Positions 1,557 through 28,946 of a stretch of 64,000 nucleotides of DNA are shown piece after piece. The stretch lies in the IMG/VR virus record IMGVR_UViG_2718218131_000002, one strand, 5' to 3'. The stretch comes from a virus (lineage: Duplodnaviria > Heunggongvirae > Uroviricota > Caudoviricetes). The position numbers were made by a program, and so were the translations under genes. The notes under the pieces were generated by a model, which did not search any database, was not told the origin of the DNA, and worked only from the letters and a program-made list of their open reading frames with translations. Position 1 is the stretch's first letter; each line of letters begins with the position of its first letter.

Positions 1557-1646
1557 ATCATATTTCTGAGCCGGATACCGAAATTCCGCCGGGCTTCAGG
1601 GGGTAAGTGTTAATTTCTGGTCATGAGGTAATTTTCAGGAGGGCTT

Positions 1647-2069: not shown

Positions 2070-2321
2070 TGAGATTAAAGTTTATTAGTTCAGATATTGA
2101 TTGGCTCTTTTGTGGAGTAGGGTAGAGTTAGTGTGTTTGTCTGCTTGGTGCCAGCAGCGGATATGTTTAACAACAGAAAGCATTCAGCATGGTTAGTGGA
2201 TTTGCAAAGTGGATTAGGATTTGAGAAACTTTGATGAAGTTGTAAAGCTTGTTTCTATAAAAATAGAAATTTAACTAATAGTTAAACACACCTCCAGCTT
2301 CATTGAAAAGGATTATTAGCT

Positions 2322-2609: not shown

Positions 2610-2725
2610 ATGAAATAGGAGAGAGTCTGAAAGATAAATACTCTACTTTATATATTTTTGGTTTTTGTAAAGCCTCAAGATACCTAACTCCAAGTTATTG
2701 TAAAATAATCGACCCCAGCTATTTC

Positions 2726-3220: not shown

Positions 3221-3534
3221 TTGTCGATTTAGCAAAACAGAGAATGCTTTGAAAGTTTCACCGAGAAATATTTATTGTGAACCTCCTTATTGTTTATCGA
3301 CTTTTACTCTCCGCTCATTGCAGTACTGTCGGAGAAGGCTACTATGTACAAGAAGCAGCTAACATAAGCGAGCATCACTATTGATATTAGGAAGAGTATA
3401 TAAAAACTTCATGCTGAACCTTACAAAAGTAGGTAAACCGGCAATGGCCTAAGTGGCAGGGTCATGTTGATCCGGCACTGCCGAGCTAATAATTAACAAG
3501 CAAATCACTCTTTCTAATAATTTGTTGAAATAAA

Positions 3535-4194
3535 CTAAATATGTATATGTTTACCAACAACCACATATGAACTACCTGCTTTGCTCCATGATTTTATTAT
3601 TTCTAAATTATTATCTGAGCATATTTTACTTACAGTATCCACATCTAATAAACCATAGTAGAAAGCATTGCGAGAGTTTTGGTATATATACCCATGCAAA
3701 TGTTTAATACCGCTCTCGTACCTCTTGAAATAAGAACTTTTGTATTGATTGACAATCAGTGCTTCACCATCACTCTTTAATAATTCTCTAATCGCACTGA
3801 GGACTTTGTGAATTGTGGATTCACATGGAATTGCGGAAAGCACGTTTGCGCAAAGTATGAAATCATAATGATTTGTTATTTTATCTATATTTTCATAAGA
3901 AACAATATTAGCATTCTTATAGTTATTTATCACGTAATCTGGAATCGTGGTTTGTACACCTCTGATAATTTGCACTCTTTCTAGTTGTCTTCTGGAATCT
4001 AAAAATGTCACAGTTTCAAATTTATTTACTAATTGTTCTGAATATCTAAGTTTTCCACATCCAAAATCAAGGGCATTGCCATTTTTATTAGTGCTTTCAA
4101 TCTGTTTACAGAGATAGTTAGATGGCATAGTGTGCGGTTTCGCTGCATTTTCTGAACGTATGTTTATTCCATTTATTTTGTAATTCAAAATCAA
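3535..4194 (-). CDS. class I SAM-dependent methyltransferase
   Basis: Motif I LDFGCGKLRY and Rossmann-like order; AT-rich codon usage. Confidence 0.6.
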   Translation of the reverse strand: MILNYKINGINIRSENAAKPHTMPSNYLCKQIESTNKNGNALDFGCGKLRYSEQLVNKFETVTFLDSRRQLERVQIIRGVQTTIPDYVINNYKNANIVSYENIDKITNHYDFILCANVLSAIPCESTIHKVLSAIRELLKSDGEALIVNQYKSSYFKRYESGIKHLHGYIYQNSRNAFYYGLLDVDTVSKICSDNNLEIIKSWSKAGSSYVVVGKHIHI

Positions 4195-4200
4195 CCTCGT

Positions 4201-4908
4201 TTAAAAAATATTGTTATTGTTAAAGAATTCTTTTATTTTGCTATCAGGTATTTGTCTTACTTGGCTTTCTGTTCTTGGTTTAACTGATGCTATGAAAATA
4301 AGGAAGTCAAATGCGACAAGAGAAATAATCCACAACCAAAGATTAATTAAAGAGCCAGTAACAGAGAATATATTTGTTAATTTGGCGATACTTATTATTA
4401 AAATAGTAACAAATGCGATTACTGTATGTTCAAAGAAAACCCAAAAGTAATAAACTTTGTTCCAGAAAAGTTCAACGTAATGTTTGTCTTTTAACTCTTT
4501 AACTTCTGGGTAATACAGTTTACTCATTACCTTGTGAGATTCATCAGTAGTTAATTTTCTCGTAACGCCTGCAATTTTTGCTAATGGTTTAATAATTAAA
4601 TGACTATCCCACATCTTCCTTATTCCAATAATTTTTGCTACATTATTATGTAGATCTAAAGCTCCACTAATTACTGACCAAAAAACTGAAGATGCAATTG
4701 GTAATATGCCAAAGGTTAATATCCATTTAATAAATTCCTCGTAGTCTTTAACGGGGGGGATATACTTGGCATTAATGCCAACCAATGGCATGTAGCCATA
4801 AATGACTAATGATAGGTAAAATATAAATGTAGTAATAAAAGTCGCCTTATGGAGCATAGGCAACATTTCATTATAACTCTTTGGTGGTTCTAACATTTTA
4901 CTCTCCAA
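4201..4908 (-). CDS. polytopic membrane protein of unknown function
   Basis: 235 aa with several long hydrophobic segments; 6-nt gap to the methyltransferase downstream on the same strand. Confidence 0.5.
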   Translation of the reverse strand: MESKMLEPPKSYNEMLPMLHKATFITTFIFYLSLVIYGYMPLVGINAKYIPPVKDYEEFIKWILTFGILPIASSVFWSVISGALDLHNNVAKIIGIRKMWDSHLIIKPLAKIAGVTRKLTTDESHKVMSKLYYPEVKELKDKHYVELFWNKVYYFWVFFEHTVIAFVTILIISIAKLTNIFSVTGSLINLWLWIISLVAFDFLIFIASVKPRTESQVRQIPDSKIKEFFNNNNIF

Positions 4909-5638
4909 ACACTCAAAAAAAAGCTAATCTTCTATAATAACGAAATTCAGCTGGCACAATTAAAGATTAATTGCCACCAATTTCTTGATTTTATAATTTT
5001 ATCTAAATGTTTTTGATTAATCTAGTCCTAAAAGAAACCTACTGCATAAATATTTATGCTGATGACCCACTCCCTGTTCGTTAACACATAGCAACGTTAG
5101 TAATGCATCCTAAGTGATCAATATTTTTGCTAGCTTCATCTGCTCGCTCAAAGGGAACTATAATGTTGGCTTGCGTGTGACTTGGCATGTTTAAAGAAGT
5201 GCTGGTGGTGACTGGTTGCTGTTTTCCATTTCCACAGAACAAAATCATAGAAACTATACCCAGTAGTTGTATTGAATCACTGACGAGACAGCCTCATATT
5301 TATCAGGACTGGTGTACGTCCAATACAGGAGGTTGTGGTGCTGGTTCTCAAATGTGCGCTGGCTATTGCTGCTGTAATGGCAATTTATTGTCTTGCTGTT
5401 GTTCTTATGGATCACCTTTCTGATTGATTTCATATTGGCGAGGTAACGGTAGTTAAGTAGAATTGCTGCGGGTGCTTGAGGCTATCTGCCTCGGGCATCA
5501 ACACCAAAGGCAGATAGAGAAAAGCCCCAGTTAACATTACGCGTCCGGCAAGACGCTTAACATTAATCTGAGGCCATATCTATGCTCTACACACGTAGGT
5601 TAGCCTCTTACGTGCCGAAAGGCAAGGAGAAGCAGGCT

Positions 5639-5794
5639 ATGAAGCAGCAAAAGGCGATGTTAATCGCCCTGATCGTCATCTGTTTAACCGTCATAGTGAC
5701 GGCACTGGTAACGAGGAAAGACCTCTGCGAGGTACGAATCCGAACCGGCCAGACGGAGGTCGCTGTCTTCACAGCTTACGAACCTGAGGAGTAA
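5639..5794 (+). CDS. hok: Hok/Gef family type I toxin (HokD/RelF-like)
   Basis: MKQQKAMLIALIVICLTVIVTALVTRKDLCEVRIRTGQTEVAVFTAYEPEE is a near-exact Hok family match from memory; in-frame upstream extension from 5582 looks like a mok-like leader. Confidence 0.85.
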   Translation: MKQQKAMLIALIVICLTVIVTALVTRKDLCEVRIRTGQTEVAVFTAYEPEE

Positions 5795-5863
5795 GAGACC
5801 CGGCGGGGGAGTAATCTCCCGCCACCTCTGATGTGCCAGGCATCCTCAACGCACCCGCACTTA

Positions 5864-5886
5864 ACCCGCTTCGGCGGGTTTTTGCA
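5864..5886 (+). terminator. rho-independent terminator after hok
   Basis: CCCGCTTCGGCGGG hairpin followed by T-run. Confidence 0.55.
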
Positions 5887-5959
5887 TTAGTCTGGTTGAC
5901 AAAAATAGAAAAATGCGAAAATATGTGGTTTACGAATTCTAAAAAAAGCGAAACTTGAA

Positions 5960-6610
5960 ATGAATGAAAATCAGTTAGCTCCTTGTTGGGAATTTCAACC
6001 TTATCTTGCTGAAAACTATGTTCGCCACTTGTTGGCGGAGATCGCTAACGTACTTGAGCAGCTGTACTATCATAAGCACGCATTAGACAGCAACTGGTCT
6101 GAAGGTGTAAGGGCTTATGATTGGGTCAGAAATCATCTTATTCAAAATGAAGATGCAATTCCTGGCCTTGAGATGATTTCCAAGGGGTTGGACTATGTAG
6201 TTGCTTTAAATAAAGTTCCGCTACAATTTACCAAAGATTGCATTAATAACCCCAAAAAGAAACATCGTCTGCGTCGAAATAAAGTAGAGTATGAGCAACT
6301 CTCATTGTTTGGTGATGTTGAGGCTGAGCAAGATATTACATGGCGAGTCATAGCTGAGCCTTTTTTATCCGAAGAGGGCGATGGTGAATTAGAGTCCACA
6401 CTGCCTCGTTGGGAGGTAGCTCTTGTTGGATTTAATACTTATGGTGCTCAGATTAGTATAGTTTCTCATCAATCTACAGCATCGATGCCGCTTATGCCTC
6501 TTGATTATAACACACTCCCTGACGAAGCGGAGATTAATAAGGTGCCTCTTCGTCGGCGTACGAAGGATAAAGATTTGGATGTGAGCAGTGATGGAACATC
6601 AGGTGAATAA
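5960..6610 (+). CDS. hypothetical protein, candidate toxin/effector partner of the downstream XRE-peptidase
   Basis: 216 aa; 3' end overlaps the next gene by 23 nt; no motif recognised. Confidence 0.4.
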   Translation: MNENQLAPCWEFQPYLAENYVRHLLAEIANVLEQLYYHKHALDSNWSEGVRAYDWVRNHLIQNEDAIPGLEMISKGLDYVVALNKVPLQFTKDCINNPKKKHRLRRNKVEYEQLSLFGDVEAEQDITWRVIAEPFLSEEGDGELESTLPRWEVALVGFNTYGAQISIVSHQSTASMPLMPLDYNTLPDEAEINKVPLRRRTKDKDLDVSSDGTSGE

Positions 6611-7694
6611 CTTCACTGAGTATCGGGGTGATAAGCTCAAACTAGCGAGAATGGCTGTTGGGCTTTCTTGTGAAGAGTTAGCCGAAAAAATTGGCAAGAC
6701 AAAGCAATTCGTTAGCAAACTGGAGAAGGGGTGCAGGCCATCGGAGCAATGTCTTGAGTTAATATCTTCAGCGCTTATGATTAAGTCCAGTTTTCTTTTT
6801 ACTGAACGAAAATACGCTCTGGAAAGTGATGTCTGCCATTTTCGGAGTAAGAAGTCCAGGACTCAAACGCTGACTAATAGTGTATTGGCCAGGGCTGAGA
6901 TTCTTAATATTATAATTTCTGCTGTTGAAGGTGAAATCGAATTTCCTGACGTTAACATACCGGAGCACCCAGGGGCTGAATTACTTACTCCGAATGATAT
7001 TGAGCGAGTGGCAGAAGATTGTCGCCGTGCCTGGAATTTAGGTCTTGGCCCTATATCATCAATGGTTAAATTGGCGGAGAGTTTAGGGGTAATCGTTGCG
7101 CATGTTACGGGAGTCGATGATCGTGTTGATGCTTTTACTGTTCACAATAACAGGCCTGTTATCATCAGGAACAATGTTAAAAAAAGCATATGTAGATTTC
7201 GCTCTGATTTAGGTCATGAATTAGGGCATTTAGTAATGCATGAGGGCATAACGACAGGTGATAAACTTACGGAATCACAAGCCGATCACTTTTCGAGCGC
7301 CTTATTAGTTCCCAGGTTATCTTTCATTAAAGAATTTCCACGAATACGAGGTAAGCAATTCGACTGGAATGCTCTGGTTGAATTTAAACTTAGATGGAAA
7401 ATCAGCCTTAAAATGTGTATTTATCGAGCCAGCGCATTAGGCTTATTGACCCAGGAACAGGCAAGAACTGGCTATATGCATCTTAATTCCAGAGGGTATA
7501 CGAGAGTTGAACCTGGTGATGAACTTTTGCGCCCTGAAGAACCCGGTATGCTGGCCGAGGCGATTGAAATGCTGGATGATGCAACCTGGCTAAGAATTCT
7601 TATGAAAACTGGCTTGAGCCAAGATTTAATTCGTGAGTTGTTCTCCATCAACAGACCTATTACAAATCCAAGAAATATTTTCCAGATTGTTTGA
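6588..7694 (+). CDS. XRE-family HTH fused to ImmA/IrrE-type Zn metallopeptidase (COG2856-like)
   Basis: N-terminal HTH (LARMAVGLSCEELAEKIGKTKQFVSKLEKG) and HEXXH motif (HELGHLVMHE). Confidence 0.7.
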   Translation: MMEHQVNNFTEYRGDKLKLARMAVGLSCEELAEKIGKTKQFVSKLEKGCRPSEQCLELISSALMIKSSFLFTERKYALESDVCHFRSKKSRTQTLTNSVLARAEILNIIISAVEGEIEFPDVNIPEHPGAELLTPNDIERVAEDCRRAWNLGLGPISSMVKLAESLGVIVAHVTGVDDRVDAFTVHNNRPVIIRNNVKKSICRFRSDLGHELGHLVMHEGITTGDKLTESQADHFSSALLVPRLSFIKEFPRIRGKQFDWNALVEFKLRWKISLKMCIYRASALGLLTQEQARTGYMHLNSRGYTRVEPGDELLRPEEPGMLAEAIEMLDDATWLRILMKTGLSQDLIRELFSINRPITNPRNIFQIV

Positions 7695-7698
7695 GTAT

Positions 7699-7722
7699 AC
7701 CCGCTTCGGCGGGTTTTTTGTT
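7699..7722 (+). terminator. rho-independent terminator, same hairpin as at 5864
   Basis: CCCGCTTCGGCGGG followed by T-run. Confidence 0.55.
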
Positions 7723-7803
7723 TTTATTTTCAACGTGTTTGAAGTTTTGGACGGTGCCAGAATAGAATCAAAAATACTTAAGTAGCGCGCAGGGAGAAGA
7801 GGG

Positions 7804-8112
7804 ATGGACCCCGAACAGGGGGAGTGCTATTTATCTGGAAGGATTCTGTTGATGAAAATCGAAGAATTACGTGAAATTTTTAGTGAGGATGGCCTCTATA
7901 CTGTGCGCGTTGAGAATGGCGCTATTGTCAGCCACTGCCGTATTAAATGTTTACAGTCTCAACAAAGGAAGAGTGGAGCTGCGTTAATTCATTTGGTGGA
8001 TGGGCTTGTGACGGATGGTTTTATTTTGCGTGCAAATGAATTTGTCACATCGTTGCCGTCTCTGAAAGAAGCTGGGATTAAGGCTGGTTTTTCTGCTTTT
8101 GAAGATGAGTGA
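7804..8112 (+). CDS. hypothetical nin-region protein
   Basis: ORF only; likely start at the internal Met (MKIEELRE). Confidence 0.3.
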   Translation: MDPEQGECYLSGRILLMKIEELREIFSEDGLYTVRVENGAIVSHCRIKCLQSQQRKSGAALIHLVDGLVTDGFILRANEFVTSLPSLKEAGIKAGFSAFEDE

Positions 8113-8178
8113 ATTCATCTACAATTCAGCGCAGGGCTGAACCCCTGTTGAGTAACACTGTGCCACCGGAGAAAGCCG

Positions 8179-8457
8179 ATGGCGCAAAATTCCAGACAAC
8201 ACAATTCTGATAATTCAGCCGTCTTTGCCAGCAGGCACGGGCGGCGTTCTCATGCATTCAAATCTGACTGGTTCCAGCATGATCCATGTACTGAAGAGCA
8301 GGCAGAGTGGCTAATTCAGAACTACCGCAGACGTGGTTACGAGTTTCAGAAAGACCTCAGCTTCGACTTCCGACACTGGATAATCTCAGTCAGACTGCCT
8401 TACTCTGAACGCCCACCGCGTCCGTCCCGCACATTCCAGCAGCGTATCTGGAGGTAA
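8179..8457 (+). CDS. hypothetical nin-region protein
   Basis: 92-aa ORF abutting the DUF968 gene. Confidence 0.3.
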   Translation: MAQNSRQHNSDNSAVFASRHGRRSHAFKSDWFQHDPCTEEQAEWLIQNYRRRGYEFQKDLSFDFRHWIISVRLPYSERPPRPSRTFQQRIWR

Positions 8458-8458
8458 C

Positions 8459-9514
8459 GTGCGGGTATTACTTCGACCTGTTCTGGTACCGGAACTCGGG
8501 CTGGTGGTCCTTAAGCCGGGCCGTGAATCCATGCAGGTATTTCATAATCCCCGGGTGCTGGTGGAGCCGGAACCGAAAAGCATGCGCGGTCTGCCGTCAG
8601 GAACTGTTCCTGCCGTGCGCCAGCCGCTCGCGGAAGATAAATCATTACTGCCATTTTTCAGCGATGAGCGGGTGATTCGTGCTGCTGGCGGCGCTGGCGC
8701 ATTGTCTGACTGGCTGTTACGCCATGTTAAATCCTGCCAGTGGCCTCATGGTGACTACCACCACAGTGAAACCGTCATACATCGTTACGGTACCGGCGCA
8801 ATGGTATTGTGCTGGCACTGTGATAATCAGTTACGCGACCAGACTTCAGAATCACTCGGGCAACTTGCTCAACAAAACCTGACATCCTGGATGATTGACG
8901 TCATCCGCCACGCAATAAACGGTACACAGGAGCGGGAGTTATCGCTGGCTGAATTATCCTGGTGGGCGGTCTGCAATCAGGTAGCGGACGTATTGCCGGA
9001 GGCAGTATTACGTCGTTCTCTGGGATTGCGTGCGGAAAAAATCCGCTCGGTGTACCGCGAAAGCGACATCGTACCGGGAGAGCAGACCGCCACCAGCATA
9101 CTGAAGCAGCGCACAAAAAATCTTGCGCTGCTGCCTCACGCCCACCAGCAAAACCCGCCACAGGAAAAGACGGTGGTCAGCATTGCCGTTGATCCGGAGT
9201 CACCGGCTCAGTATCTCCAGCGCCAGAAACCACAACGGGAAGAGATGCCTGTATACACGCGCTGGGTAAAAACGCAGAAATGCATGACGTGCGGTAATCA
9301 GGCAGATGATCCGCATCACATCATTGGTCATGGACTGGGAGGGATGGGAACAAAGGCTGATGATTTGTTTGTTATTCCGCTGTGCCGTAAATGTCATAAC
9401 GAACTGCACGCCGGGGTAAAAGATTTTGAAGAAAAACACGGCAGCCAGCTGTTGTTGCTGATTCGTTTTTTAATGCACGCGAGAAATTCGGGTGTCCTGA
9501 AGTGGAAAGCATGA
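8459..9514 (+). CDS. DUF968 family phage protein (YdfU-like) with C-terminal HNH-like Cys/His motif
   Basis: Strong resemblance to Qin prophage YdfU (MRVLLRPVLVPELGLVVLKPGRES..., C-terminal CxxC...HH...CxxCH). Confidence 0.7.
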   Translation: MRVLLRPVLVPELGLVVLKPGRESMQVFHNPRVLVEPEPKSMRGLPSGTVPAVRQPLAEDKSLLPFFSDERVIRAAGGAGALSDWLLRHVKSCQWPHGDYHHSETVIHRYGTGAMVLCWHCDNQLRDQTSESLGQLAQQNLTSWMIDVIRHAINGTQERELSLAELSWWAVCNQVADVLPEAVLRRSLGLRAEKIRSVYRESDIVPGEQTATSILKQRTKNLALLPHAHQQNPPQEKTVVSIAVDPESPAQYLQRQKPQREEMPVYTRWVKTQKCMTCGNQADDPHHIIGHGLGGMGTKADDLFVIPLCRKCHNELHAGVKDFEEKHGSQLLLLIRFLMHARNSGVLKWKA

Positions 9515-9880
9515 ATGACTGAACGCATAGAATTTGTTTTGCCTTACCCGCCGACGGTGAACACCTACTGGCGACGTCGTGGCAGCACATATTTTGTGTC
9601 AAAAGCCGGTGAGCGTTATCGCCGGGATGTGGCACTTATTGTTCGCCAGCAGTGGCTGAAATTAAACCTGTCCGGAAGGCTGGCGATAAAGATTATTGCA
9701 GAGCCACCGGATAAGCGCCGCCGCGACCTGGACAATATCCTGAAGGCACCACTGGATGCGCTTACGCATGCCGGACTACTTATAGACGACGAGCAGTTTG
9801 ATGAAATCAATATTGTGCGCGGTCAGCTCGTTTCTGGTGGGCGGCTGGGCGTGAAGATTTACAAAATTGAAAGTGAGTGA
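9515..9880 (+). CDS. rusA: Holliday junction resolvase RusA
   Basis: 121 aa; LPYPPTVNTYW N-terminus and D..DNI acidic motif typical of RusA. Confidence 0.85.
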   Translation: MTERIEFVLPYPPTVNTYWRRRGSTYFVSKAGERYRRDVALIVRQQWLKLNLSGRLAIKIIAEPPDKRRRDLDNILKAPLDALTHAGLLIDDEQFDEINIVRGQLVSGGRLGVKIYKIESE

Positions 9881-10443
9881 GCATAAATATGATATACCCG
9901 GAAATTACAGGCAAAAGCGGTGAGCATTTACGCCTGAAAACGCTGGAAAGTGTCTGGATCCAGGGGAAACTGCGTATGTGGGGGCGTTGGTCGTATATTG
10001 GCGACGGTAAGACGGGAAATATGTTCAACCAATTACTGACCTCTAAAAAGCTGACAAAAACGGCAATTAACGAGGCGCTCCGGAGGATGAAAAAAGCGGG
10101 TCTGGACAAACCTGAACTTGAGGCTTTTTTGCGGGATATGATCAACGGCAATCAAAAAAGCTGGCTGGCACATTGTACCGATTCAGAGGCGTTAATAATC
10201 GACAGGGTTATTGGTGAAGTACTGGCAGGTTATCCCGGGCTGCTCAATGTTCTGAGTCAGCGTTATGTGGGGCGGGGGATGACTAAGCGCAAAATGGCTG
10301 AACTGCTGAATGATGCACATCCGGAATGGAGTTTAAGAACCTGTGAAAGACGCATTGAGCATTGGCTAAAGGTGGCAGAATTTATTTTGTACAAACCAAT
10401 GGTTATGGCTTTTGGTATAGAGAAAAAAGTTATTGCTTTTTGA
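9877..10443 (+). CDS. late-gene antiterminator Q-like protein
   Basis: Position between rusA and tR'/lysis region; size and Cys/His pattern fit the Q family. Confidence 0.6.
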   Translation: MSINMIYPEITGKSGEHLRLKTLESVWIQGKLRMWGRWSYIGDGKTGNMFNQLLTSKKLTKTAINEALRRMKKAGLDKPELEAFLRDMINGNQKSWLAHCTDSEALIIDRVIGEVLAGYPGLLNVLSQRYVGRGMTKRKMAELLNDAHPEWSLRTCERRIEHWLKVAEFILYKPMVMAFGIEKKVIAF

Positions 10444-10519
10444 CGTAAAAACTGCTTCAATTCCGGTAAGCTTCGCAAAGCTGTACCGCGAGGCGAATAG
10501 CAGACATGGACATTTGAAA

Positions 10520-10548
10520 GAGCCCGCTTTTTGCGGGTTTTTTTATGA
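10520..10548 (+). terminator. tR'-like rho-independent terminator downstream of Q
   Basis: AGCCCGC-TTTTT-GCGGG hairpin plus T7 run. Confidence 0.55.
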
Positions 10549-11015
10549 CTGAAAAACGGCACGGGGCGTTAAACGCGCTGGTGGTTGCTAATACCGGTCT
10601 TTCAACTTGCTGGCTTTTTCGACAAGAGTTATTGGTATGTCACGTTAACCGGAAAATGGAAAAAGGCATGCTAAAACAGCAGGATATGACCGAAACCGCC
10701 AGAGTGGTGTTTAATGAATTAAGCGTCACCGAACCGGCGACCGCCGGGGAAATTGCGCAGAACACTTATCTTTCACGCGAACGCTGCCAGTTAATACTGA
10801 CCCAGCTTGTTATGGCGGGTCTGGCAGATTATCAGTTCGGTTGTTACAGACGCCTTCCTCAGTGAAGGCTTTTTTATTTGTGGTAATGGGCGGCTGGTGG
10901 GTGTTAGCGGCACCTGCCAGCCATCTGCTCATGCGTTGGGGTCACAAGCAAACCTCAGGCCCATCTGCTTTGCGCAAAAGCGGTATGAGCCTATCAGAGA
11001 AGTGCTTATTGATCT

Positions 11016-12074
11016 ATGGCTAATACTGTAAAAATATCCAGTTGTGAGTTAATCAACGCTGATTGCCTGGAATTTATCCAGACCTTACCGGAAAACTCTG
11101 TCGATCTGATAGTCACAGACCCGCCATACTTTAAAGTGAAGCCCGAGGGCTGGGATAACCAGTGGAAGGGCGACGATGATTACCTGAAGTGGCTGGACCA
11201 GTGTCTGGCGCAGTTCTGGCGGGTGCTGAAACCTGCCGGAAGTCTTTACCTGTTCTGTGGCCATCGCCTGGCATCTGACATTGAAATCATGATGCGTGAA
11301 CGCTTCAATGTGCTGAACCATATTATCTGGGCGAAGCCGTCCGGACGCTGGAACGGGTGCAACAAGGAAAGCCTGCGGGCGTATTTTCCGGCCACAGAAC
11401 GCATTCTGTTCGCGGAACATTATCAGGGGCCGTATCGTCCGAAAGATGATGGCGATGAGGCGAAGGGCAGGGCACTGAAACAGCATGTGATGGCCCCGCT
11501 GATTTCTTACTTTCGTGATGCGCGTGCTGCTCTTGGGATAACGGCAAAACAGATTGCAGATGCCACAGGAAAGAAAAACATGGTGTCGCACTGGTTCAGT
11601 GCCAGTCAGTGGCAGCTACCGAACGAAAGCGATTATCTGAAATTACAGTCGCTGTTTGCCCGGGTGGCAGAAGAGAAACATCAGCGGGGAGAACTGGAAA
11701 AGTCCCATTACCAACTGGTCAGCACATACAGTGAGCTGAACCGGCAGTATATGGAACTGCTGAGTGAATATAAGCATCTGCGGCGGTATTTTGGCGTGAC
11801 GGTGCAGGTGCCGTATACCGATGTGTGGACGCATAAACCGGTGCAGTTCTATCCCGGGAAACATCCGTGCGAAAAACCGGCAGAAATGCTGCAGCAGATA
11901 ATCAGCGCTAGCAGTCGTCCGGGTGACCTGATTGCAGATTTTTTCATGGGGTCGGGTTCGACAGTGAAAGCGGCACTGGCGCTCGGGCGTCGTGCAATTG
12001 GCGTTGAGCTGGAGACTGAACGTTTTGAGCAGACGGTTCGGGAAGTACAGGATTTAGTCAGCCAGAACGGATGA
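11016..12074 (+). CDS. phage DNA N6-adenine methyltransferase (DPPY motif)
   Basis: TDPPYF catalytic motif and C-terminal SAM-binding FMGSGST; typical between Q and tRNAs in stx-type phages. Confidence 0.8.
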   Translation: MANTVKISSCELINADCLEFIQTLPENSVDLIVTDPPYFKVKPEGWDNQWKGDDDYLKWLDQCLAQFWRVLKPAGSLYLFCGHRLASDIEIMMRERFNVLNHIIWAKPSGRWNGCNKESLRAYFPATERILFAEHYQGPYRPKDDGDEAKGRALKQHVMAPLISYFRDARAALGITAKQIADATGKKNMVSHWFSASQWQLPNESDYLKLQSLFARVAEEKHQRGELEKSHYQLVSTYSELNRQYMELLSEYKHLRRYFGVTVQVPYTDVWTHKPVQFYPGKHPCEKPAEMLQQIISASSRPGDLIADFFMGSGSTVKAALALGRRAIGVELETERFEQTVREVQDLVSQNG

Positions 12075-12114
12075 TATTGCAGAATTAATTACGCACCATT
12101 ATTATTCTGCTCCC

Positions 12115-12190
12115 GGCCCTTTAGCTCAGTGGTGAGAGCGAGCGACTCATAATCGCCAGGTCGCTGGTTCAAATCCAGCAAGGGCCACCA
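12115..12190 (+). tRNA. ileZ: tRNA with anticodon CAT (Ile2/Met type, ileZ-like)
   Basis: 76-nt cloverleaf, acceptor GGCCCTT/AAGGGCC, anticodon loop CTCATAA, 3' CCA. Confidence 0.8.
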
Positions 12191-12197
12191 TCACATA

Positions 12198-12274
12198 CCG
12201 CCATTAGCTCATCAGGAAAGAGCGCCAGCCTTCGAAGCTGGTTGCGCGGAGTTCGGGTCCCCGAAGGCGGTCCA
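12198..12274 (+). tRNA. argN: tRNA-Arg (anticodon TCG), argN-like
   Basis: 77-nt cloverleaf, anticodon stem CCAGC/GCTGG, loop CTTCGAA, 3' CCA; one acceptor and one T-stem mismatch. Confidence 0.65.
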
Positions 12275-12287
12275 TTATCTGTATCCT

Positions 12288-12364
12288 GCGTTGTTAGCTC
12301 AGCCGGACAGAGCAATTGCCTTCTAAGCAATCGGTCACTGGTTCGAATCCAGTACAACGCGCCA
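12288..12364 (+). tRNA. argO: tRNA-Arg (anticodon TCT), argO-like
   Basis: 77-nt cloverleaf, T-loop GGTTCGAATCC, anticodon loop CTTCTAA, 3' CCA. Confidence 0.8.
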
Positions 12365-12852
12365 CACTTATTTTCCCTGGCTCGCTTTTGCGGGCTTTTT
12401 TTTAAATGTCTCACAATTCAGGCGGTTGACTGTTGTCTGGTTTGCGGGGAGTTTGTTAAAAGAAACTGGCATGGTGAATCCCCCTGTGCGGAGGGGCAAT
12501 CAGCGAGTAGGTATATGGGATAATCGCGGATTCAGGTGCTGGTACTGAATTCACCGGGAGGCACCCGGCACCATGCAATGGCACATAGCGCCACTCTCCA
12601 GCCCCTCTCCGGAGGGGCTTTCTTATGGACAAAAAAAGCCCGCGCTGGGAGACGCGGGCGGCAAGGAATAAACAACAAAACGTGAAGTAATATTTCAGCT
12701 GGCGAATAATATCCGACAGTAATCACTCTGCGCAATAGCGCGGCCTTTTTCGTATTGCGGGCCGTTGTCTCTCTTCTGCCATTGTCCTGTAACTTCCGGA
12801 CTTCAGCCCGCTCCTCATTTTACTCACAATATTATCCCGGCCGGGAGGATTC

Positions 12853-14706
12853 ATGGCATTTAAACACTATGATGTTGTCAGGGCGGCGTCGCCGTCAGAT
12901 CTTGCGGAAAAGCTGACACATAAACTGAAAGAGGGCTGGCAGCCGTTTGGTAGTCCGGTGGCCATAACCCCTTATACTCTGATGCAGGCGATTACAGCAG
13001 AAGGTGATGTGGTGGTCAGTGGTGCAACTGAGCCGGATTGGTACTACGTCATCGTACTGGCCGGGCAGTCCAATGCCATGGCTTACGGTGAAGGGCTTCC
13101 GCTGCCGGATTCATACGATGCTCCGGATCCGCGCATTAAACAGCTGGCGCGCCGCAGTACAGTGACGCCGGGTGGGGCTGCCTGCAGATATAACGATATT
13201 ATTCCGGCCGACCACTGCCTGCATGATGTGCAGGATATGAGTACGCTGAATCATCCGAAGGCAGACCTGAGCAAAGGGCAGTACGGCTGTGTCGGCCAGG
13301 GCTTACATATTGCCAAAAAACTGCTTCCGTATATCCCGAATAACGCGGGGATCCTGCTGGTACCATGCTGTCGTGGTGGTTCGGCATTCACCCAGGGCGC
13401 GGAGGGGACATTCAGTGCGGACACGGGGGCCAGCCAGGATTCGGCACGCTGGGGTGTGGGTAAACCGTTATATCAGGACCTGATTGCGCGCACTAAAGCT
13501 GCATTACAGAAGAACCCGAAAAATGTGTTGCTGGCGGTGTGCTGGATGCAGGGAGAGTTTGACATGAGCGCCGCCACCTACGCACAGCAACCTGCGCTGT
13601 TTACAGCCATGCTGAAGCAGTTTCGTGCTGACCTCACTGTGTTTAACGCGCAGTGTCATGGTGGCAGTGCTGCAGATGTGCCGTGGATTTGTGGTGACAC
13701 GACGTATTACTGGAAAAATACATACGCTACCCAGTACGACACCGTGTACGGAGGGTATAAAAACAGGGAGAGTGAGGGCGTTTATTTTGTGCCCTTCATG
13801 ACAGACGGTAACGGCGTCAATACCGCCACTAACGCGCCGGCAGAAGATCCGGATATTCCGGCATCAGGATATTACGGTGCGGCATCGAGAACGAATGGAA
13901 ACCAGGTATCATCAAACCGCCCGACACATTTCAGTTCATGGGCGCGCAGGAGCATTATTCCGGATCGTCTGGCAACCGCTATTCTGAACGCAGCCGGGCG
14001 CACCTCAGCCTTCATCAGTGGTAAGGCACCGGAAATCAAACCCTCGCCCGGCGGCAACACGCCATCGGGTCCGTCTGCAGATACGTCCGTTCGCACAATC
14101 TCCCTGCTGCCGGCAGCCGGAGAGGCTGCTGCGCAGGGCTGGAGCATTAAGGATGGCGGAATTCAGTTGTCAGATGGTGTATTTAAGATCACCAAGCAGA
14201 GCAATAAAACCTGGTCCCTGACGCATCCGGTGGATGACGCAATTACCCTGCTGACACAGGGCGGCAGACTGACCTGTAAGTTCCGCCTGTCAGGCGCACT
14301 GACCAACAATCAGTTCGGGCTGGGGATTTATCTGTATACGGATGCTCCCGTTCCTGATGGTGTGGCGATGACGGGTACCGGTAATCCGTTCCTGATGTCG
14401 TACTTCACTCAGACCACTGACGGCAGAGTGAATCTGATGCATCACAGGAAAGCCGGAAACACGAAGCTGGGGGAGTTCGGCGATTACGGTAACGACTGGC
14501 AGACGCTGGAGCTGGTGTTCACCGCCGGCAGTGCCACGGTTACTCCGAAACTGAATGGAGTGGCTGGCCCGGCATTCCAGGTTATAAAAGACAGTCTGAC
14601 ACTGGGACTGAATGCGCTGACGCTGACGGATGTTACAAAAAATGCAGCGTATGGCGTTGAGATAGAAAGTCTGGTGCTGGAGATAAATGCACCGGCATCA
14701 TCATAA
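12853..14706 (+). CDS. prophage sialate O-acetylesterase (NanS-p-like)
   Basis: 617 aa; conserved N-terminus [21 protein letters not shown] and SGNH-type [11 protein letters not shown] motif; sits where stx-phages carry the gene downstream of stx. Confidence 0.7.
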
Positions 14707-14855
14707 AAAGTGAGCCAGTCAAATGGAAGGTATCGTTAAACTCACCGGTAGTGTCAGTGGGTCGTCTGAGACGCCTGCATGAGTTATCAGAGCCATCAGT
14801 AGTTAACTGGTGGCTTTTTTATTGTTGTCAGCTTCCGGATAACGGGAGACGGGGT

Positions 14856-15071
14856 ATGTACCAGATGGAAAAAATCACAACAGGTGTGTCATACACCACG
14901 TCAGCGGTAGGGACGGGATACTGGTTACTGCAACTGCTGGACAAAGTCTCTCCGTCCCAGTGGGTGGCAATAGGTGTACTGGGGAGTCTGCTGTTTGGCC
15001 TGCTGACGTATCTGACTAACCTGTATTTCAAAATCAGAGAGGACCGTCGTAAGGCGGCACGGGGAGAGTAA
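14856..15071 (+). CDS. S: class II holin (phage 21 S-type pinholin)
   Basis: 71 aa from dual-start MYQMEK; strong similarity to S21 ([36 protein letters not shown]). Confidence 0.8.
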
Positions 15072-15075
15072 TTCA

Positions 15076-15420
15076 ATGACTCAAAACTATGAACTGATTG
15101 TGAAAGGGATCCGCAATTTTGAGAATAAAGTTACGGTAACTTTAGCGTTACGGGACAAAAAACGCTTTGACGGTGAAATTTTTGACCTGGACATCTCGCT
15201 GGACCGTGTTGAAGGTGCCGCGCTGGAGTTTTATGAGGCAGCAGCCAGAAGGAGCATCAGACAGGTCTTCCTGGATGTTGCTGCCGGGTTATGTGAAGGG
15301 GATGAGCAGTCACCGGAAAAGCGCCCCATAATTTTAGAGGCGCAGGGTGTGTGGATAACCTACAAAGGAAAACTGCCGGGAAGAATTACTGGTTCACTGA
15401 AGACTCCGCCGAAATGGTAA
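15076..15420 (+). CDS. hypothetical protein between holin and endolysin
   Basis: 114-aa ORF. Confidence 0.35.
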   Translation: MTQNYELIVKGIRNFENKVTVTLALRDKKRFDGEIFDLDISLDRVEGAALEFYEAAARRSIRQVFLDVAAGLCEGDEQSPEKRPIILEAQGVWITYKGKLPGRITGSLKTPPKW

Positions 15421-15658
15421 TTTCACCAGCATATTTTTCTTCCAGTAATGCCGCCAGCCACTTGAAAGAATTTTGTTGTTCCTGGGACCATTTGGGGTTG
15501 CGTGACTCAAGCAGAAGCGATGCCAGTGTTGGTTGCATTTGTTCTCTGGGAATTGAGAAGGCCAGATATGAAAATGCAACAGTGAGAGCATTTACATCAT
15601 CCCGAAGCCTGGAAATGCAGTCGAGCAACTCCTGTAGAGAAATGGTGTTATTGTCCAT
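15386..15658 (-). CDS. hypothetical protein, opposite strand within the lysis cassette
   Basis: 90-aa ORF; no motif. Confidence 0.3.
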   Translation of the reverse strand: MDNNTISLQELLDCISRLRDDVNALTVAFSYLAFSIPREQMQPTLASLLLESRNPKWSQEQQNSFKWLAALLEEKYAGEITISAESSVNQ

Positions 15659-15763
15659 AAATAATCCTCATGATTGTATTGACCTGTTAGCAGCCTGAGG
15701 CAACAGGCTGGAACTGATAAACATATCCAGGGGTCCGGAACCGATAAATCCTGATAAATATCC

Positions 15764-16297
15764 ATGAACGCAAAAATCAGATACGGCCTGTCGGCTGCCG
15801 TTCTGGCGCTGATTGGTGCAGGGACGTCTGCGCCTGAAATCCTCGACCAGTTTCTTGACGAAAAAGAAGGTAACCACACCACGGCATACCGTGATGGTGC
15901 GGGGATCTGGACCATCTGCCGCGGTGCCACCCGAGTGGATGGTAAGCCTGTCGTCCCGGGTATGAAGTTATCGAAGGAAAAGTGCGACCAGGTTAACGCC
16001 ATTGAACGTGATAAGGCGCTGGAGTGGGTGGAGCGCAATATTAAAGTACCGCTGACCGAACCCCAGAAGGCGGGTATCGCGTCATTTTGTCCTTATAACA
16101 TTGGCCCCGGTAAGTGTTTCCCGTCTACGTTTTACAGACGGATTAATGCAGGTGATCGAAAAGGTGCCTGCGAAGCGATTCGCTGGTGGATTAAGGACGG
16201 TGGCAGAGACTGCCGTATCCGCTCAAATAATTGCTACGGTCAGGTATCCCGGCGAGACCAGGAAAGTGCACTGGCGTGCTGGGGAATTGACAGATAA
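15764..16297 (+). CDS. R: SAR endolysin (T4-lysozyme fold, R21-like)
   Basis: N-terminal signal-anchor-release hydrophobic segment plus E..D..T catalytic triad context (EGNHTTAYRDGAGIWTICRG). Confidence 0.8.
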   Translation: MNAKIRYGLSAAVLALIGAGTSAPEILDQFLDEKEGNHTTAYRDGAGIWTICRGATRVDGKPVVPGMKLSKEKCDQVNAIERDKALEWVERNIKVPLTEPQKAGIASFCPYNIGPGKCFPSTFYRRINAGDRKGACEAIRWWIKDGGRDCRIRSNNCYGQVSRRDQESALACWGIDR

Positions 16298-16786
16298 GCA
16301 GAATATTTTGCTGAAAAATGACGTTGGCCAACGCGGGCGGATAACACGAAATCCTGCGAACTGGCAAAAACTAAGTGAATAAAAGTAAAACCCCGTTTGT
16401 TGGCCGCAAACGGGGTTTTGTGTTTCTGACCTTGAGTAAGGCAAGGGAGAACATGGGAAAGTATAAACGAATTCTGTTGAGATTGACTATGAAAAACGGC
16501 CTTGAACTGAAAGCGCCTGTAACTGATGACGTCAGCAGAGCGCTGGCTTTTGCTATTAAGTGGGTGGCGGTCGGTATTGCTGTGTCTCCGATGCTGTATG
16601 GGCTGGCAAAACTGGTCATTGCGTTGAAATCGTGAAGAGGATTAAGCATGTCAGACAAGCTCATAACGCTGGCGAAGATCCTCTGTGTAATCGTCGGCAT
16701 TTCATTTTCACTAATGCTGGTTGCTATTTGCTTTTCCACTGCCTGGCGCGTCTTAACTTTGTCATGGCTGGTGGGGTGAGGGGGAT

Positions 16787-17254
16787 ATGAACCGTGTTCT
16801 GTGTGTGGTGATTATTGTCCTGCTGGTAGCCTGTGGTGTGCTTAGTCTGGGGCTGAATCATTACCGCGATAACGCCATTACCTACAAAGCGCAACGCGAT
16901 AAAAAAGCCAGTGAGCTGAAGCTGGCGAACGTGACAATTACTGATATGCAGGTACGCCAGCGTGATGTCGCTGCACTTGATGCCAGATACTCGAGGGAAT
17001 TAGCCGATGCGAGAGCTGAAAATGAAACTCTGCGTGCTGATGTTGCCGCTGGTCGTAAGCGCCTGCGCATCAACGCCAACTGTCCAGGCTCCTTGCGTAA
17101 AGCCCCCATCACCTCCGGCGTGGATAATGCAACCGGTCCCCGACTGGCAGAAGCCGCTGAACGGGATTATTTCATCCTCAGAGAACGGCTGATGGCAATG
17201 CAGAAGCAACTGGAAGGAGCACAGGAATATATCCGTACCCAGTGTATACCGTGA
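16787..17254 (+). CDS. Rz: i-spanin Rz
   Basis: N-terminal TM then coiled coil; conserved lambda Rz stretch YKAQRDK...[22 protein letters not shown]. Confidence 0.75.
17007..17192 (+). CDS. Rz1: o-spanin Rz1 lipoprotein, embedded in Rz in the +1 frame
   Basis: Lipobox LVVSAC then Pro-rich sequence. Confidence 0.7.
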
Positions 17255-17719
17255 TGTTTTGTTATGAAGGTGTTACTGGTAACGTTAAGGTAATTTAACA
17301 AAGAGTCAGTTCCGGACTTTATAGTGTGCTCAGTTCATGGACAAAAACGATTTCTGTGATAAATATTTTGAATATTATTTACAGGTAAATGGAGTGGGGC
17401 GCATGGATAGAAATATTACAATAGAGTATGAAGTATATGCCCGTATTGTATGGGCAGAGAAGGCAAAAACACGGTAATTCCGTGTGTTGCCATGATACCT
17501 GATTGGCAGAATAGTTGTTTGGTTTTGAGTATATAGTCAGCGTTTTTTGTTCAGTAATTGCCCCCTCAAAAAATAATAAAATAAGGTGATTATTTTTGTT
17601 TATTATTTAGTTTTTTTTGTGTGTTATTTTATTGTTTTTGCGTGGTTTGTTTTTTATTGTTATTTCATTAAGGGAAGGTAAATTCAGGATGGCAGTCTGT
17701 AGATAATCGGAGGTCACTT

Positions 17720-18034
17720 ATGCTACATGATCACGTGGCAGAATGTCTGGAGAAAAAAGGACTGTACCGGAGAGCAGCTGAACGATGGGCAAAAGTGATG
17801 GTACAGCTAAGTGATGACCAGAAAAGAAAAGTGGCGGCACAGAAACGAGCAGAGTGTTTGCGTAAGGCGCGCCGGACTCCGGTTTCACCGGTGAACCTGA
17901 CCGAAATAAAACAAGCGGTCAACAGACTACATTCTGAGTTGGGAATGGGATTTGAAGAGCGGCGGGTATTCCGACGATATAAAGGGACAGGAGAACAGAA
18001 TACGTCCGGAAACGCGCGGTCAAAAAAATGCTAA
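17720..18034 (+). CDS. PerC-family transcriptional activator-like protein (tentative)
   Basis: N-terminus MLHDHVAECLEKKGLYRRAAERW resembles PerC/Pch proteins; AT-rich upstream. Confidence 0.4.
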   Translation: MLHDHVAECLEKKGLYRRAAERWAKVMVQLSDDQKRKVAAQKRAECLRKARRTPVSPVNLTEIKQAVNRLHSELGMGFEERRVFRRYKGTGEQNTSGNARSKKC

Positions 18035-18115
18035 AAAATATCTGAGAGCGTTATTGCCTGTTACCATAAGAAAAAGCGACTTTAGTGGTCGCTTTTTGTG
18101 TCATATATAAGTCGT

Positions 18116-18340
18116 TTAAGTAAACCTGTCTGAACAGGTGCTCTGGTCGTGTTTGTCTTTGTTGGGTACAAATTGAGCATGTTTTTCATTAATTAATCTT
18201 CTTCTGCAGGCTTCAATAACCCACGCTGAAAAATTACCTGAACCTTTCTGATCAAGAGCGATGTTAATTTGTTCAATCATTTGGTTAGGAAAGCGGATGT
18301 TGCGGGTTGTTTTTCTGCGGGTTCTGTTCTTCGTTGACAT
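18116..18340 (-). CDS. small YnfO/YlcI-like (DUF3950-type) prophage protein
   Basis: MSTKNRTRRKTTRNIRFPNQMIEQINIALDQKGSGNFSAWVIEACRRRL resembles Qin YnfO. Confidence 0.45.
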   Translation of the reverse strand: MSTKNRTRRKTTRNIRFPNQMIEQINIALDQKGSGNFSAWVIEACRRRLINEKHAQFVPNKDKHDQSTCSDRFT

Positions 18341-18510
18341 GAGGTTGCCCCGTATTCAGTGTCGCTGATTTGTATTGTCTGAAGTTGTTTTTACGTTAAG
18401 TTGATGCAGATCAATTAATACGATACCTGCGTCATAATTAATTATTTGACGTGGTTTGAACCGCCCCGGGAATCCTGGAGACTAAACTCCCTGAGAAAGA
18501 GGTAAACAGG

Positions 18511-18837
18511 ATGACTAAAAATACTCGTTTTTCCCCCGAAGTCCGTCAGAGGGCGATTCGTATGGTTCTGGAAAGTCAGGGCGAATATGACTCACAGTGG
18601 GCGGCAATTTGTTCCATTGCCCCAAAGATTGGCTGTACACCGGAGACTCTGCGTGTCTGGGTACGCCAGCATGAGCGGGATACCGGAGGCGGTGATGGCG
18701 GGCTCACCACCGCTGAACGTCAGCGTCTGAAAGAGCTGGAACGTGAAAATCGTGAACTGCGCCGCAGTAACGATATCCTTCGCCAGGCTTCCGCTTATTT
18801 TGCAAAGGCGGAGTTCGACCGCCTCTGGAAAAAGTGA
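18511..18837 (+). CDS. IS629 OrfA (HTH/leucine-zipper part of transposase)
   Basis: [26 protein letters not shown]... is the characteristic IS629 OrfA. Confidence 0.85.
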
Positions 18838-19724
18838 TGCCACTGCTGGATAAGCTGCGTAAGCTGTACGGGGTCGGACCGGTATGCAGTGAACTACATA
18901 TTGCCCCGTCAACGTATTACCACTGTCAGCAACAGCGACATCATCCTGATAAACGCAGTGCCCGTGCGCAGCGCGATGACTGGCTGAAGAAAGAGATACT
19001 GCGCGTATACGATGGGAATCATCAGGTATACGGTGTGCGTAAAGTCTGGCGTCAGTTGTTACGGGAAGGAATCAGGGTAGCCAGATGTACAGTGGCGCGC
19101 CTCATGGCGGTTATGGGACTTGCCGGTGTTCTCCGGGGTAAAAAGGTCCGCACTACCGTCAGCCGGAAAGCCGTTGCCGCAGGCGACCGCGTAAACCGTC
19201 AGTTTGTGGCAGAACGTCCTGACCAGTTGTGGGTGGCTGATTTTACTTACGTCAGCACATGGCAGGGGGGCGTCTATGTGGCGTTCATCATTGATGTGTT
19301 TGCCGGATACATCGTGGGGTGGCGGGTCTCATCGTCTATGGAAACGACATTCGTGCTGGATGCTCTGGAGCAGGCGTTATGGGCCCGTCGACCGTCCGGC
19401 ACAGTCCATCACAGTGATAAAGGTTCTCAGTATGTATCGCTGGCCTACACACAGCGGCTTAAGGAAGCCGGATTACTGGCATCAACAGGAAGTACTGGTG
19501 ACTCGTATGACAACGCGATGGCGGAGAGCATCAATGGCCTTTACAAAGCGGAGGTAATACACCGTAAGAGCTGGAAAAACCGGACAGAAGTGGAGCTGGC
19601 CACACTCACGTGGGTGGACTGGTATAACAATCGACGATTGCTGGAAAGGCTGGGCCATATCCCACCGGCAGAAGCAGAAAAAGCTTATTATGCTTCCATC
19701 GGAAACGATGATCTGGCAGCCTGA
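18834..19724 (+). CDS. IS629 OrfB (DDE catalytic part; made by -1 frameshift from OrfA)
   Basis: Overlaps OrfA in the -1 frame; IS3-family DDE transposase. Confidence 0.85.
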
Positions 19725-19852
19725 GTTCACAGATAAAACACTCTCCAGGAAACCCGGGGCGGTTCAGTTTGATGGCGTAGATGCACGTTGTGACATGTAG
19801 ATGATAATTATTATCATTTTGCGGGTCCTTTCCGGCGATCCGACAGGTTACG

Positions 19853-19864
19853 GGGCGGCGACCT
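19853..19864 (+). other. prophage cosN (GGGCGGCGACCT) within the cos region
   Basis: Matches the lambda cohesive-end sequence and its flanks; ~180 bp upstream of Nu1. Confidence 0.8.
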
Positions 19865-20041
19865 CGCGGGTTTTCGCTATTTATGAAAATTTTCCGGTTT
19901 AAGGCATTTCCGTTCTTCTTCGTCGTAACTTAATGTTTTTATTTAAAATACCCCCTGAAAAGAAAGGAAACGACAGGTGCTGAAAACGAGCTTTTGGGCC
20001 TCTGTCGTTTCCTTTCTCTGTTTTTGGCCGTGGAATGAACA

Positions 20042-20561
20042 ATGGAAGTCAACAAAAAGCAGCTGGCTGACATTTTCGGTGCGAGTATCCGTACCATTCA
20101 GAACTGGCAGGAACAGGGAATGCCCGTTCTGCGAGGCGGTGGCAAGGGTAATGAGGTGCTTTATGACTCTGCCGCCGTTATAAGATGGTATGCCGAAAGG
20201 GATGCTGAAATTGAGAACGAAAAGCTGCGCCGGGAAGTTGAAGAACTGCGGCAGGCCAGCGAGACAGATCTCCAGCCAGGGACTATTGAGTACGAACGCC
20301 ATCGACTTACGCGTGCGCAGGCCGACGCACAGGAGCTGAAAAATGCCAGAGACTCCGCTGAAGTGGTGGAAACCGCATTCTGTACTTTCGTGCTGTCGCG
20401 GATCGCAGGTGAAATTGCCAGTATTCTCGACGGGATCCCCCTGTCGGTGCAGCGGCGTTTTCCGGAACTGGAAAACCGACATGTTGATTTCCTGAAACGG
20501 GATATCATCAAAGCCATGAACAAAGCAGCCGCGCTGGATGAACTGATACCGGGGTTGCTGA

Positions 20562-20587
<26 letters not shown>
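20042..20587 (+). CDS. nu1: terminase small subunit Nu1
   Basis: 181 aa, essentially lambda Nu1 (MEVNKKQLADIFGASIRTIQNWQEQGMP...). Confidence 0.9.
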
Positions 20588-24268
<3,681 letters not shown>

Positions 24269-24288
<20 letters not shown>

Positions 24289-25588: not shown

Positions 25589-25597
25589 GGGATGTTT

Positions 25598-28930: not shown

Positions 28931-28946
28931 CAGAAGGAACAACAGT

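Follow-up and report, generated by a model that had tools for sequence, protein, structure and literature searches.

Positions 9515 to 15071 of the viral record IMGVR_UViG_2718218131_000002 resemble the late region of a Shiga toxin (Stx)-converting phage, yet no toxin genes are present. We refer to the analysed 64-kb stretch (64,000 nt) as the window and give all coordinates as positions within it. This region is very probably the late regulatory and lysis-proximal segment of a mosaic, non-Stx lambdoid prophage, in which the site known from other phages to carry stx is in its toxin-less form and holds two convergent small RNA (sRNA) genes. Both the toxin-less site and the convergent sRNAs are ordinary, common and already described (Tree et al. 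2014, PMC4104026).

The original prediction, made from the sequence alone, had placed no stxA or stxB between the last tRNA and the sialate O-acetylesterase gene nanS-p, and database searches bear this out. Using Stx2A and Stx2B as tblastn queries against the entire window, the former of which would pick up Stx1A too, we obtained best E values of 2.4 to 3.0, that is, no stx. Likewise, blastn of the whole argO-to-nanS-p interval of a Stx2a phage against the window recovered only the post-tRNA terminator and an RNA module as shared sequence. The stx remnants that would have spoken against the prediction were thus absent from 12365-12852 in both searches. It had also proposed an alignment with Stx phages in search of a deletion scar; run against the two Stx2 phages Lys12581Vzw (L004) and L002, this returned a clean junction. 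Specifically, window positions 12101-12402 align to 2363-2665 of Lys12581Vzw at 93% identity and positions 12407-12899 align to 4001-4503 at 86.7%, with a stx2AB cassette of 1,335 bp (L004 2666-4000) in place of just 4 nt (12403-12406) of the window; L002 has the same breakpoints. In the Stx2 phages, the cassette therefore sits directly after the post-argO terminator and directly before the sRNA module.

The module downstream of the junction is shared with toxin phages of both types. Homologues of the sRNA STnc100 lie directly 3′ of stx2B (L002 6239-6454, L004 4034-4235), an arrangement reported previously for stx2 (PMC12370729, PMC12711010), and also 3′ of stx1B in phage H-19B (L005 3701-3913), in which stx1AB ends ∼80 nt upstream. 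Since stx2AB and stx1AB are both placed upstream of the shared sRNA module, we read the present element as the toxin-less form of the site as opposed to a damaged toxin locus. Judging from these alignments, toxin genes are one cargo among several between the tRNA terminator and the conserved sRNA module. The region 3′ of the Q-antiterminated PR′ promoter tolerates morons and carries convergent sRNA genes, as named for Sp5 (stx2; EcOnc27/AsxR) with the same organization in Sp3, Sp4, Sp9, Sp10, Sp11, Sp15, and Sp17 (Tree et al. 2014, PMC4104026). The stretch from the post-argO terminator to nanS-p would correspond to this known moron site, its cargo here being only the convergent sRNA pair. In the toxin-less yecE prophage PPyecE_EH1910 (L001 4655-6513), the site holds a plasmid-stabilization/transcriptional-regulator pair, a TerB-like gene, an STnc100 homologue, and a convergent AgvB gene, illustrating cargo turnover. 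A search of the available literature found no paper that treats ileZ, argN, and argO together with stx.

The spacer was originally described as noncoding. This holds insofar as no protein gene lies in its 488 bp; however, Rfam searches, peak mapping from prophage Sp4 of Escherichia coli O157 Sakai, and terminator predictions place two convergent sRNA genes there. On the plus strand, positions 12440-12630 match the STnc100 family (RF02076) with 138 bits against a gathering score of 47 (model positions 1-206, E = 2.6e-30), and a terminator scan gives this gene its own terminator at 12600-12619. The spacer as a whole differs from the argO1-to-ECs_1088 spacer of Sp4 at only 3 of 488 positions (99.4% identity), and it is in Sp4 that Hfq-crosslinked RNAs were mapped (Tree et al. 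2014, PMC4104026, Table S2). Window positions 12501-12609 are identical to the Sp4 peak EcOnc05 obtained by Hfq cross-linking and analysis of cDNAs (CRAC), while coordinate mapping places the EcOnc08 peak at 12633-12705, with one mismatch, and the EcOnc21 peak at 12711-12796. By Northern blotting, EcOnc05 is a plus-strand RNA of ∼222 nt, and the minus-strand peaks EcOnc08 and EcOnc21 represent one species of ∼271 nt (Tree et al. 2014, PMC4104026). The minus-strand RNA has a predicted terminator reading from 12659 to 12638, abutting the STnc100 gene. In addition, the stretch from 12684 to 12631 shows 50/54 identity to the 3′ 52 nt of E2348C_1409.E2348C_1408.IGR, an sRNA candidate from RNA interaction by ligation and sequencing (RIL-seq) in enteropathogenic E. 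coli (Pearl Mizrahi et al. 2021, PMC8550237, Fig. S5).

From the ∼222-nt Sakai band, the 5′ end of the plus-strand RNA is probably near 12406-12415; the ∼271-nt band would put that of the minus-strand RNA near 12903. Applied to this locus, the latter size predicts antisense overlap with the nanS-p 5′ untranslated region, ribosome-binding site, start codon, and first ∼50 nt. We also considered anti-sRNAs of the AgvB/AsxR class (RF02702, RF02703), whose 3′ region of ∼42 nt is conserved while the 5′ seed varies, and which are encoded opposite to the late genes, beside an STnc100-type gene. No AgvB/AsxR/EcOnc03-type anti-sRNA of the kind that lies opposite STnc100 in PPyecE_EH1910 and Sp5 was detected, either as an Rfam match with E ≤ 1 in 10400-15200 or by blastn-short. 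By sequence type, the minus-strand RNA is of the EcOnc08 type instead of the AgvB/AsxR class. RefSeq annotates a pseudogene ("incomplete hypothetical protein") on the minus strand at 12459-12584 in E. coli EC-107 and in O157 genomes; lying wholly inside the STnc100-type sRNA, this call is probably spurious.

For both EcOnc05 and EcOnc27, the estimated 5′ end falls at the start of the shared module, where there is no recognizable promoter; the STnc100-type sRNA may therefore be cut out of an upstream read-through transcript, be it a tRNA or a stx mRNA. If true, sRNA output would be coupled to late or toxin transcription. Because the convergent ∼271-nt RNA overlaps the nanS-p start codon, we further propose that it may act as a cis-antisense regulator of nanS-p translation. 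That all of this holds jointly, with the junction as the exact entry point of stx2AB, STnc100 cut from read-through RNA, and the minus-strand RNA controlling nanS-p in cis, strikes us as unlikely.

Genes were called from an open reading frame (ORF) listing, ARAGORN, and Rfam, Pfam, NCBIfam, and PHROG profiles, together with the PGAP annotation of the identical region of EC-107. These give the following features:

9515-9880, plus strand: RusA gene (ORF and profile searches)
9889-10443, plus strand: Q-like antiterminator gene, DUF1133, distantly Q21-related; an alternative GTG start at 9877 overlaps the RusA stop
10433-10472, plus strand: putative late promoter pR′, proposed from sequence
10515-10545, plus strand: tR′-like intrinsic terminator with a 13-bp stem and U-run (RNA fold)
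10668-10865, plus strand: small ORF of 65 amino acids (PHROG 331, E = 5e-37; PGAP coding sequence in EC-107)
10852-10869, plus strand: terminator-like hairpin after the 65-amino-acid ORF (terminator scan)
11016-12074, plus strand: DNA methyltransferase gene, DPPY motif (Pfam N6_N4_Mtase, 151 bits)
12115-12364, plus strand: tRNA cluster of ileZ Ile2(CAT), argN Arg(TCG), and argO Arg(TCT) (ARAGORN, Rfam tRNA, PGAP tRNA-Ile/Arg/Arg)
12365-12852: spacer from argO to nanS-p, 488 bp
12379-12404, plus strand: intrinsic terminator after argO (terminator scan, fold)
12440-12630, plus strand: STnc100-family sRNA gene, EcOnc05 homologue (Rfam RF02076)
12631-12903, minus strand: convergent Hfq-binding RNA, EcOnc08/EcOnc21 homologue (peak mapping; 5′ end estimated)
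12853-14706, plus strand: nanS-p-type sialate O-acetylesterase gene, 617 amino acids (Pfam DUF1737, SASA, and DUF6645)
14789-14823, plus strand: terminator-like hairpin and T-run between nanS-p and the holin gene (terminator scan; fold of 14707-14830, z = -3.15)
14856-15071, plus strand: P21-type class II holin gene, pinholin family, 71 amino acids (Pfam Phage_holin_2_1, PF04971, 112 bits; PGAP coding sequence)
15076-15420: DUF1327/YdfR-family ORF between the holin and lysozyme genes
15764-16297: lysozyme gene, signal-anchor-like N terminus (PF00959), followed by Rz/Rz1

The late-region order is therefore Q-like gene, tR′ terminator, small ORF, methyltransferase, ileZ-argN-argO, 488-bp spacer, nanS-p, and P21-type holin, and the ORF, tRNA, RNA-family, and profile searches confirm the gene order first proposed, from Q through nanS-p to the lysis genes, including the three rare-codon tRNAs said to have remained. 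Set side by side with the annotation of L002 and L004, it matches the Stx-phage-style order of Q, tR′, (methylase), ileZ-argN-argO, [stx], sRNA, nanS-p, and S-R-Rz. As it rests on homology, this shared layout can be taken as far beyond chance. The 65-amino-acid ORF has a homologous "hypothetical protein" in the equivalent spot of Stx2 phages. The methyltransferase, whose DNA is 92.5-93.5% identical to the methylase of Stx2a/2d phages, is probably of the N6-adenine type; its top NCBIfam matches are adenine-specific methyltransferases, yet fall under their cut-offs.

A close known counterpart of the tRNA-to-nanS-p segment is that of Sakai Sp4, for which a 789-bp alignment covering the tRNA cluster (ileZ1-argN1-argO1), the spacer, and the nanS-p start is 99.4% identical; Sp4 has the same convergent sRNA pair and likewise lacks stx. 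Its upstream part differs, with an "antiterminator Q family" gene of 123 amino acids, a CPBP/CAAX protease gene, and an AraC/helix-turn-helix gene replacing the DUF1133-type Q and methyltransferase, as does its downstream part, where an IS629 copy lies directly after nanS-p and the lysis genes are in inverted orientation. With Stx2a/2d phages, namely the LC5678xx series and Lys12581Vzw (Oslovirus), the segment running from the small ORF through methyltransferase and ileZ-argN-argO to the post-tRNA terminator shares 92.5-93.5% identity, and in these phages it is followed by an STnc100-family sRNA, nanS-p, and a P21-type holin in the order found here. Apart from the toxin cassette, they differ in their Q/pR′ module and in the sRNA module, which is 69-87% identical, and some have iraM between the sRNA and nanS-p. 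In the Stx1 phages H-19B and VT1-Sakai (Sp15), the nanS-p and holin region is ∼97% identical, and in VT1-Sakai identity is 98% from the 3′ half of the sRNA onward; both differ in having stx1AB and another Q type, and in the H-19B record examined no methyltransferase-tRNA block precedes stx1.

The same late architecture without stx is seen in PPyecE_EH1910, in PPwrbA prophages, and in vB_EcoP_phi296 (Traversvirus). In phi296, a short-tailed Sepvirinae phage with another Q, the tRNAs, sRNA region, and NanS are contiguous at 84.5% identity. Among phages, PPyecE_EH1910 gives the best match overall (77% coverage, 94.6% identity), but it has no tRNAs, and its cargo site holds the toxin-antitoxin-like pair, TerB-like gene, and AgvB.

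The Q-like protein scores 349.3 bits against DUF1133 (PF06576; cut-off 23.1) and 33.1 bits against Phage_antitermQ (PF06530, the Q21 family; cut-off 26), falls into PHROG 753 ("anti-termination protein Q-like"), and matches the Q21 structure 6P18 by phmmer with E = 4.8e-4. PGAP puts the start of the identical EC-107 gene at 9889. By tblastn, 40 of 50,697 phage records match this protein, none of them named as a Stx-converting phage, and the nearest are Rac-type phages including Rac-SA53; nor is the Q/pR′ module at 9877-10532 covered by the best-matching Stx phages. On sequence criteria, this Q gene is of the DUF1133/Q21-related type of Rac-like phages, other than the types of Stx phages. Hence, the flanking genes match their Stx-phage counterparts, as had been expected, over 10533-12402 and 12728-15071, but not in this module. 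Rac, Rac-SA53, SerU-LTIIb, and vB_EcoS-683R6 encode the same Q family at 67-82% amino-acid identity and, as here, carry cargo between Q and the holin gene. Their cargo differs (eplBA, a pertussis-like toxin, in Rac-SA53; tRNA-Thr/Gly in 683R6), and none has the block of methyltransferase, ileZ-argN-argO, and nanS-p. In Rac-SA53, the eplB/eplA operon lies between the DUF1133 Q and the holin gene (L013 2501-4723), so that this Q type also fronts a non-Shiga toxin cargo.

Candidate pR′ elements around the end of Q are a −35 box TTGCTT (10433-10438) and a −10 box TTCAAT (10456-10461), followed by the −10-like TAAGCT (a TAnGCT element) at 10467-10472, which might function in sigma-dependent pausing. 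Beside this putative promoter, we could not delineate a Q-binding element. Phage vB_EcoS-683R6, a carrier of this Q family, has a conserved counterpart of the stretch just 3′ of Q, although the terminators differ. Folding of 10444-10550 yields −37.6 kcal/mol (z = -4.36), with a strong hairpin and U-run at 10515-10545. An IsrK candidate at 10470-10543 scored 19.8 bits against a gathering score of 50 (E = 0.45) and was taken as a chance match. That a Q-dependent late promoter has been retained, as first suggested, is plausible.

If so, the Q21-related (DUF1133) antiterminator would act at the promoter just 3′ of its own gene, allowing RNA polymerase to pass tR′ (10515-10545) and the terminators at 10852, 12379, 12600, and 14789. 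The resulting late transcript would span the small ORF, the methyltransferase gene, three rare-codon tRNAs, nanS-p, and the S/R/Rz lysis genes. Expression in a lysogen would be likeliest for the sRNAs and probably also for the tRNAs and nanS-p.

As for the protein genes downstream of the moron site, the nanS-p product exceeds the Pfam cut-offs for DUF1737, SASA, and DUF6645, matches PHROG 143 with 1166 bits, and has a GQSN motif in its translation; the DNA is ∼97% identical to annotated yjhS/nanS-p of Stx1a phages. With an N-terminal DUF1737, a catalytic SASA, and a C-terminal lectin-like domain, and its location between the moron site and the holin gene, 12853-14706 has the features of a NanS-p gene and is predicted to encode an esterase. 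The proposed cassette of pinholin and signal-anchor-release endolysin is well supported as phage 21-type: the holin (PF04971, 112 bits) shows the dual-start motif M1...M4 (MYQM), and the lysozyme (PF00959) an N-terminal segment YGLSAAVLALIGAGTSA and the catalytic motif E-x8-D-x5-T, each read from the translation. The holin gene starts at 14856, giving a protein of 71 amino acids, and not at 14751, where the longest ORF begins. In phage 21 and many Stx2 phages, S and R are adjacent, whereas here the DUF1327/YdfR ORF intervenes; EC-107 has an annotated ORF overlapping it on the opposite strand. The hairpin at 14789-14823 has 12 bp and a T-run and lies 33 nt 5′ of the holin start, where other prophages reportedly have PasA/PasC-type sRNAs. 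We found no match there to the published PasA/PasC fragments, nor to PasD1 or AgvB/AsxR; the hairpin may mark a further terminator of the late operon or the 3′ terminus of an RNA not yet described.

Positions 9877-15071 are 100% identical in nine complete E. coli genomes, mostly of chicken isolates and including the O80:H26 strain EC-107, and 1,092 of 5,426 complete E. coli genomes contain at least 80% of the region, with a median of 2 matching places per genome and up to 18. The EC-107 copy is a lambdoid prophage at serU (tRNA-Ser)/mtfA with a dicA/dicB/dicC early region. The window matches EC-107, its closest complete genome, at 99.99% identity over 1-19897 only, ending ∼170 nt past an IS3-family insertion sequence (IS) element at 18511-19724; past this point, the genes for head and tail correspond to another prophage carried by these chicken strains. 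Positions 17000-30000 are not contiguous in any complete E. coli genome, and the break past the IS3 element reflects either an event between prophages at the IS (recombination or inversion) or a join made in assembly.

Several further loci were seen along the window. The prophage early region has a hok/sok-type locus at 5470-5794, with sok RNA (Rfam, 114 bits) and hokD, and a PerC/Pch-family regulator gene follows the lysis genes at 17720-18034, the equivalent place in Sakai Sp4 being occupied by pchA. Beyond the prophage end are a tail fibre gene (42276-43595), an IS30-like transposase gene (43667-44668), and potA/potB-like, pepT-like, and roxA-like genes. Further on (51969-60013), a second integrase gene, a D5-type primase gene, and a capsid-E gene look like a P4-like satellite or small prophage.

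The original prediction had left two origins for the missing toxin genes, a nonconverting relative or a derivative that lost them. The second would make this a former Stx-converting prophage whose stxAB was either excised precisely between short repeats or replaced, along with its surrounding segment, when a coresident toxin-less prophage recombined homologously with it. It can draw on the ancestry of both flanks, since the best phage matches of 10533-12402 are Stx2a/2d phages, full length at 92.5-93.5%, while 12728-15071 is ∼97% identical to many Stx1a phages through the holin gene, and the sequence rightward from 12547 is 98% identical to VT1-Sakai. This near-identity on the right marks the region as mosaic. 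An imperfect short repeat (ATATCTG/AATCTG) flanks the stx2 cassette in L002 and L004, and the many similar prophages per genome would ease recombinational replacement. Against this, the repeat of 6-7 nt is short enough to arise by chance, no stx remnant is seen at any level, identity to Stx phages peaks at 93.5% on the left block and at ∼87% (86.7%) across the whole sRNA module, and the Q/pR′ module type occurs in no Stx-named phage record. At least 1,053 of the 5,426 complete E. coli genomes have the contiguous toxin-less argO-sRNA-nanS-p junction, as do, at 84-100% identity, 102 phage records, among them induced Sepvirinae phages like phi296 and the PPwrbA prophages; this argues for an old, widespread allele over repeated precise deletions. 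Loss of stx from this element thus lacks positive evidence and appears highly improbable, while the widespread junction and the 99.4% identity of the spacer to non-Stx Sp4 favor the nonconverting relative. On that reading, the late region would have been assembled from modules common to Stx phages and, more closely, to Sp4; nanS-p in non-Stx prophages has been reported (PMC10462455, PMC8065619).

A different view would be that the prophage is a decaying, noninducible remnant in which the Q/pR′/tR′ circuit is dead and selection keeps only the lysogen-expressed sRNAs, tRNAs, and nanS-p. The integrase is a frameshifted pseudogene in EC-107, the IS3-family element (ALIL pseudoknot at 18792-18908) splits the lysis genes from terminase, identity to EC-107 ends just beyond it with structural genes from another prophage, and the Sp4 counterpart is also disrupted, by its IS629. 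Yet all late-region ORFs from Q through Rz are intact, and the leader and terminator 3′ of Q are well formed. We regard decay as a real possibility, if the lesser one; it concerns inducibility and is compatible with the identity of the locus as a toxin-less moron site in a non-Stx prophage. Some observations do weigh against that assignment or its functional side. The 98% match to VT1-Sakai from 12547 suggests that part of the region recently shared ancestry with a toxin phage, and the frameshifted integrase and IS3 insertion suggest that the prophage may be defective, such that its late operon may no longer drive a productive lytic cycle. A consensus promoter scan of the region did not call pR′; the proposed Q-dependent antitermination, promoter position, and pause element derive from layout and one conserved alignment, and expression of the sRNAs is taken from near-identical loci of other strains.

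Overall, toxin-less late regions resembling those of Stx phages are abundant in E. coli, and absence of stx from them is a common state, not a lesion. The "noncoding" gap at this site is better annotated as two convergent Hfq-binding sRNA genes, and beyond such correct annotation the present locus has little significance. As a group, however, these prophages stay relevant, both because they are recombination partners for Stx phages and because they carry nanS-p, rare-codon tRNAs, and regulatory RNAs.

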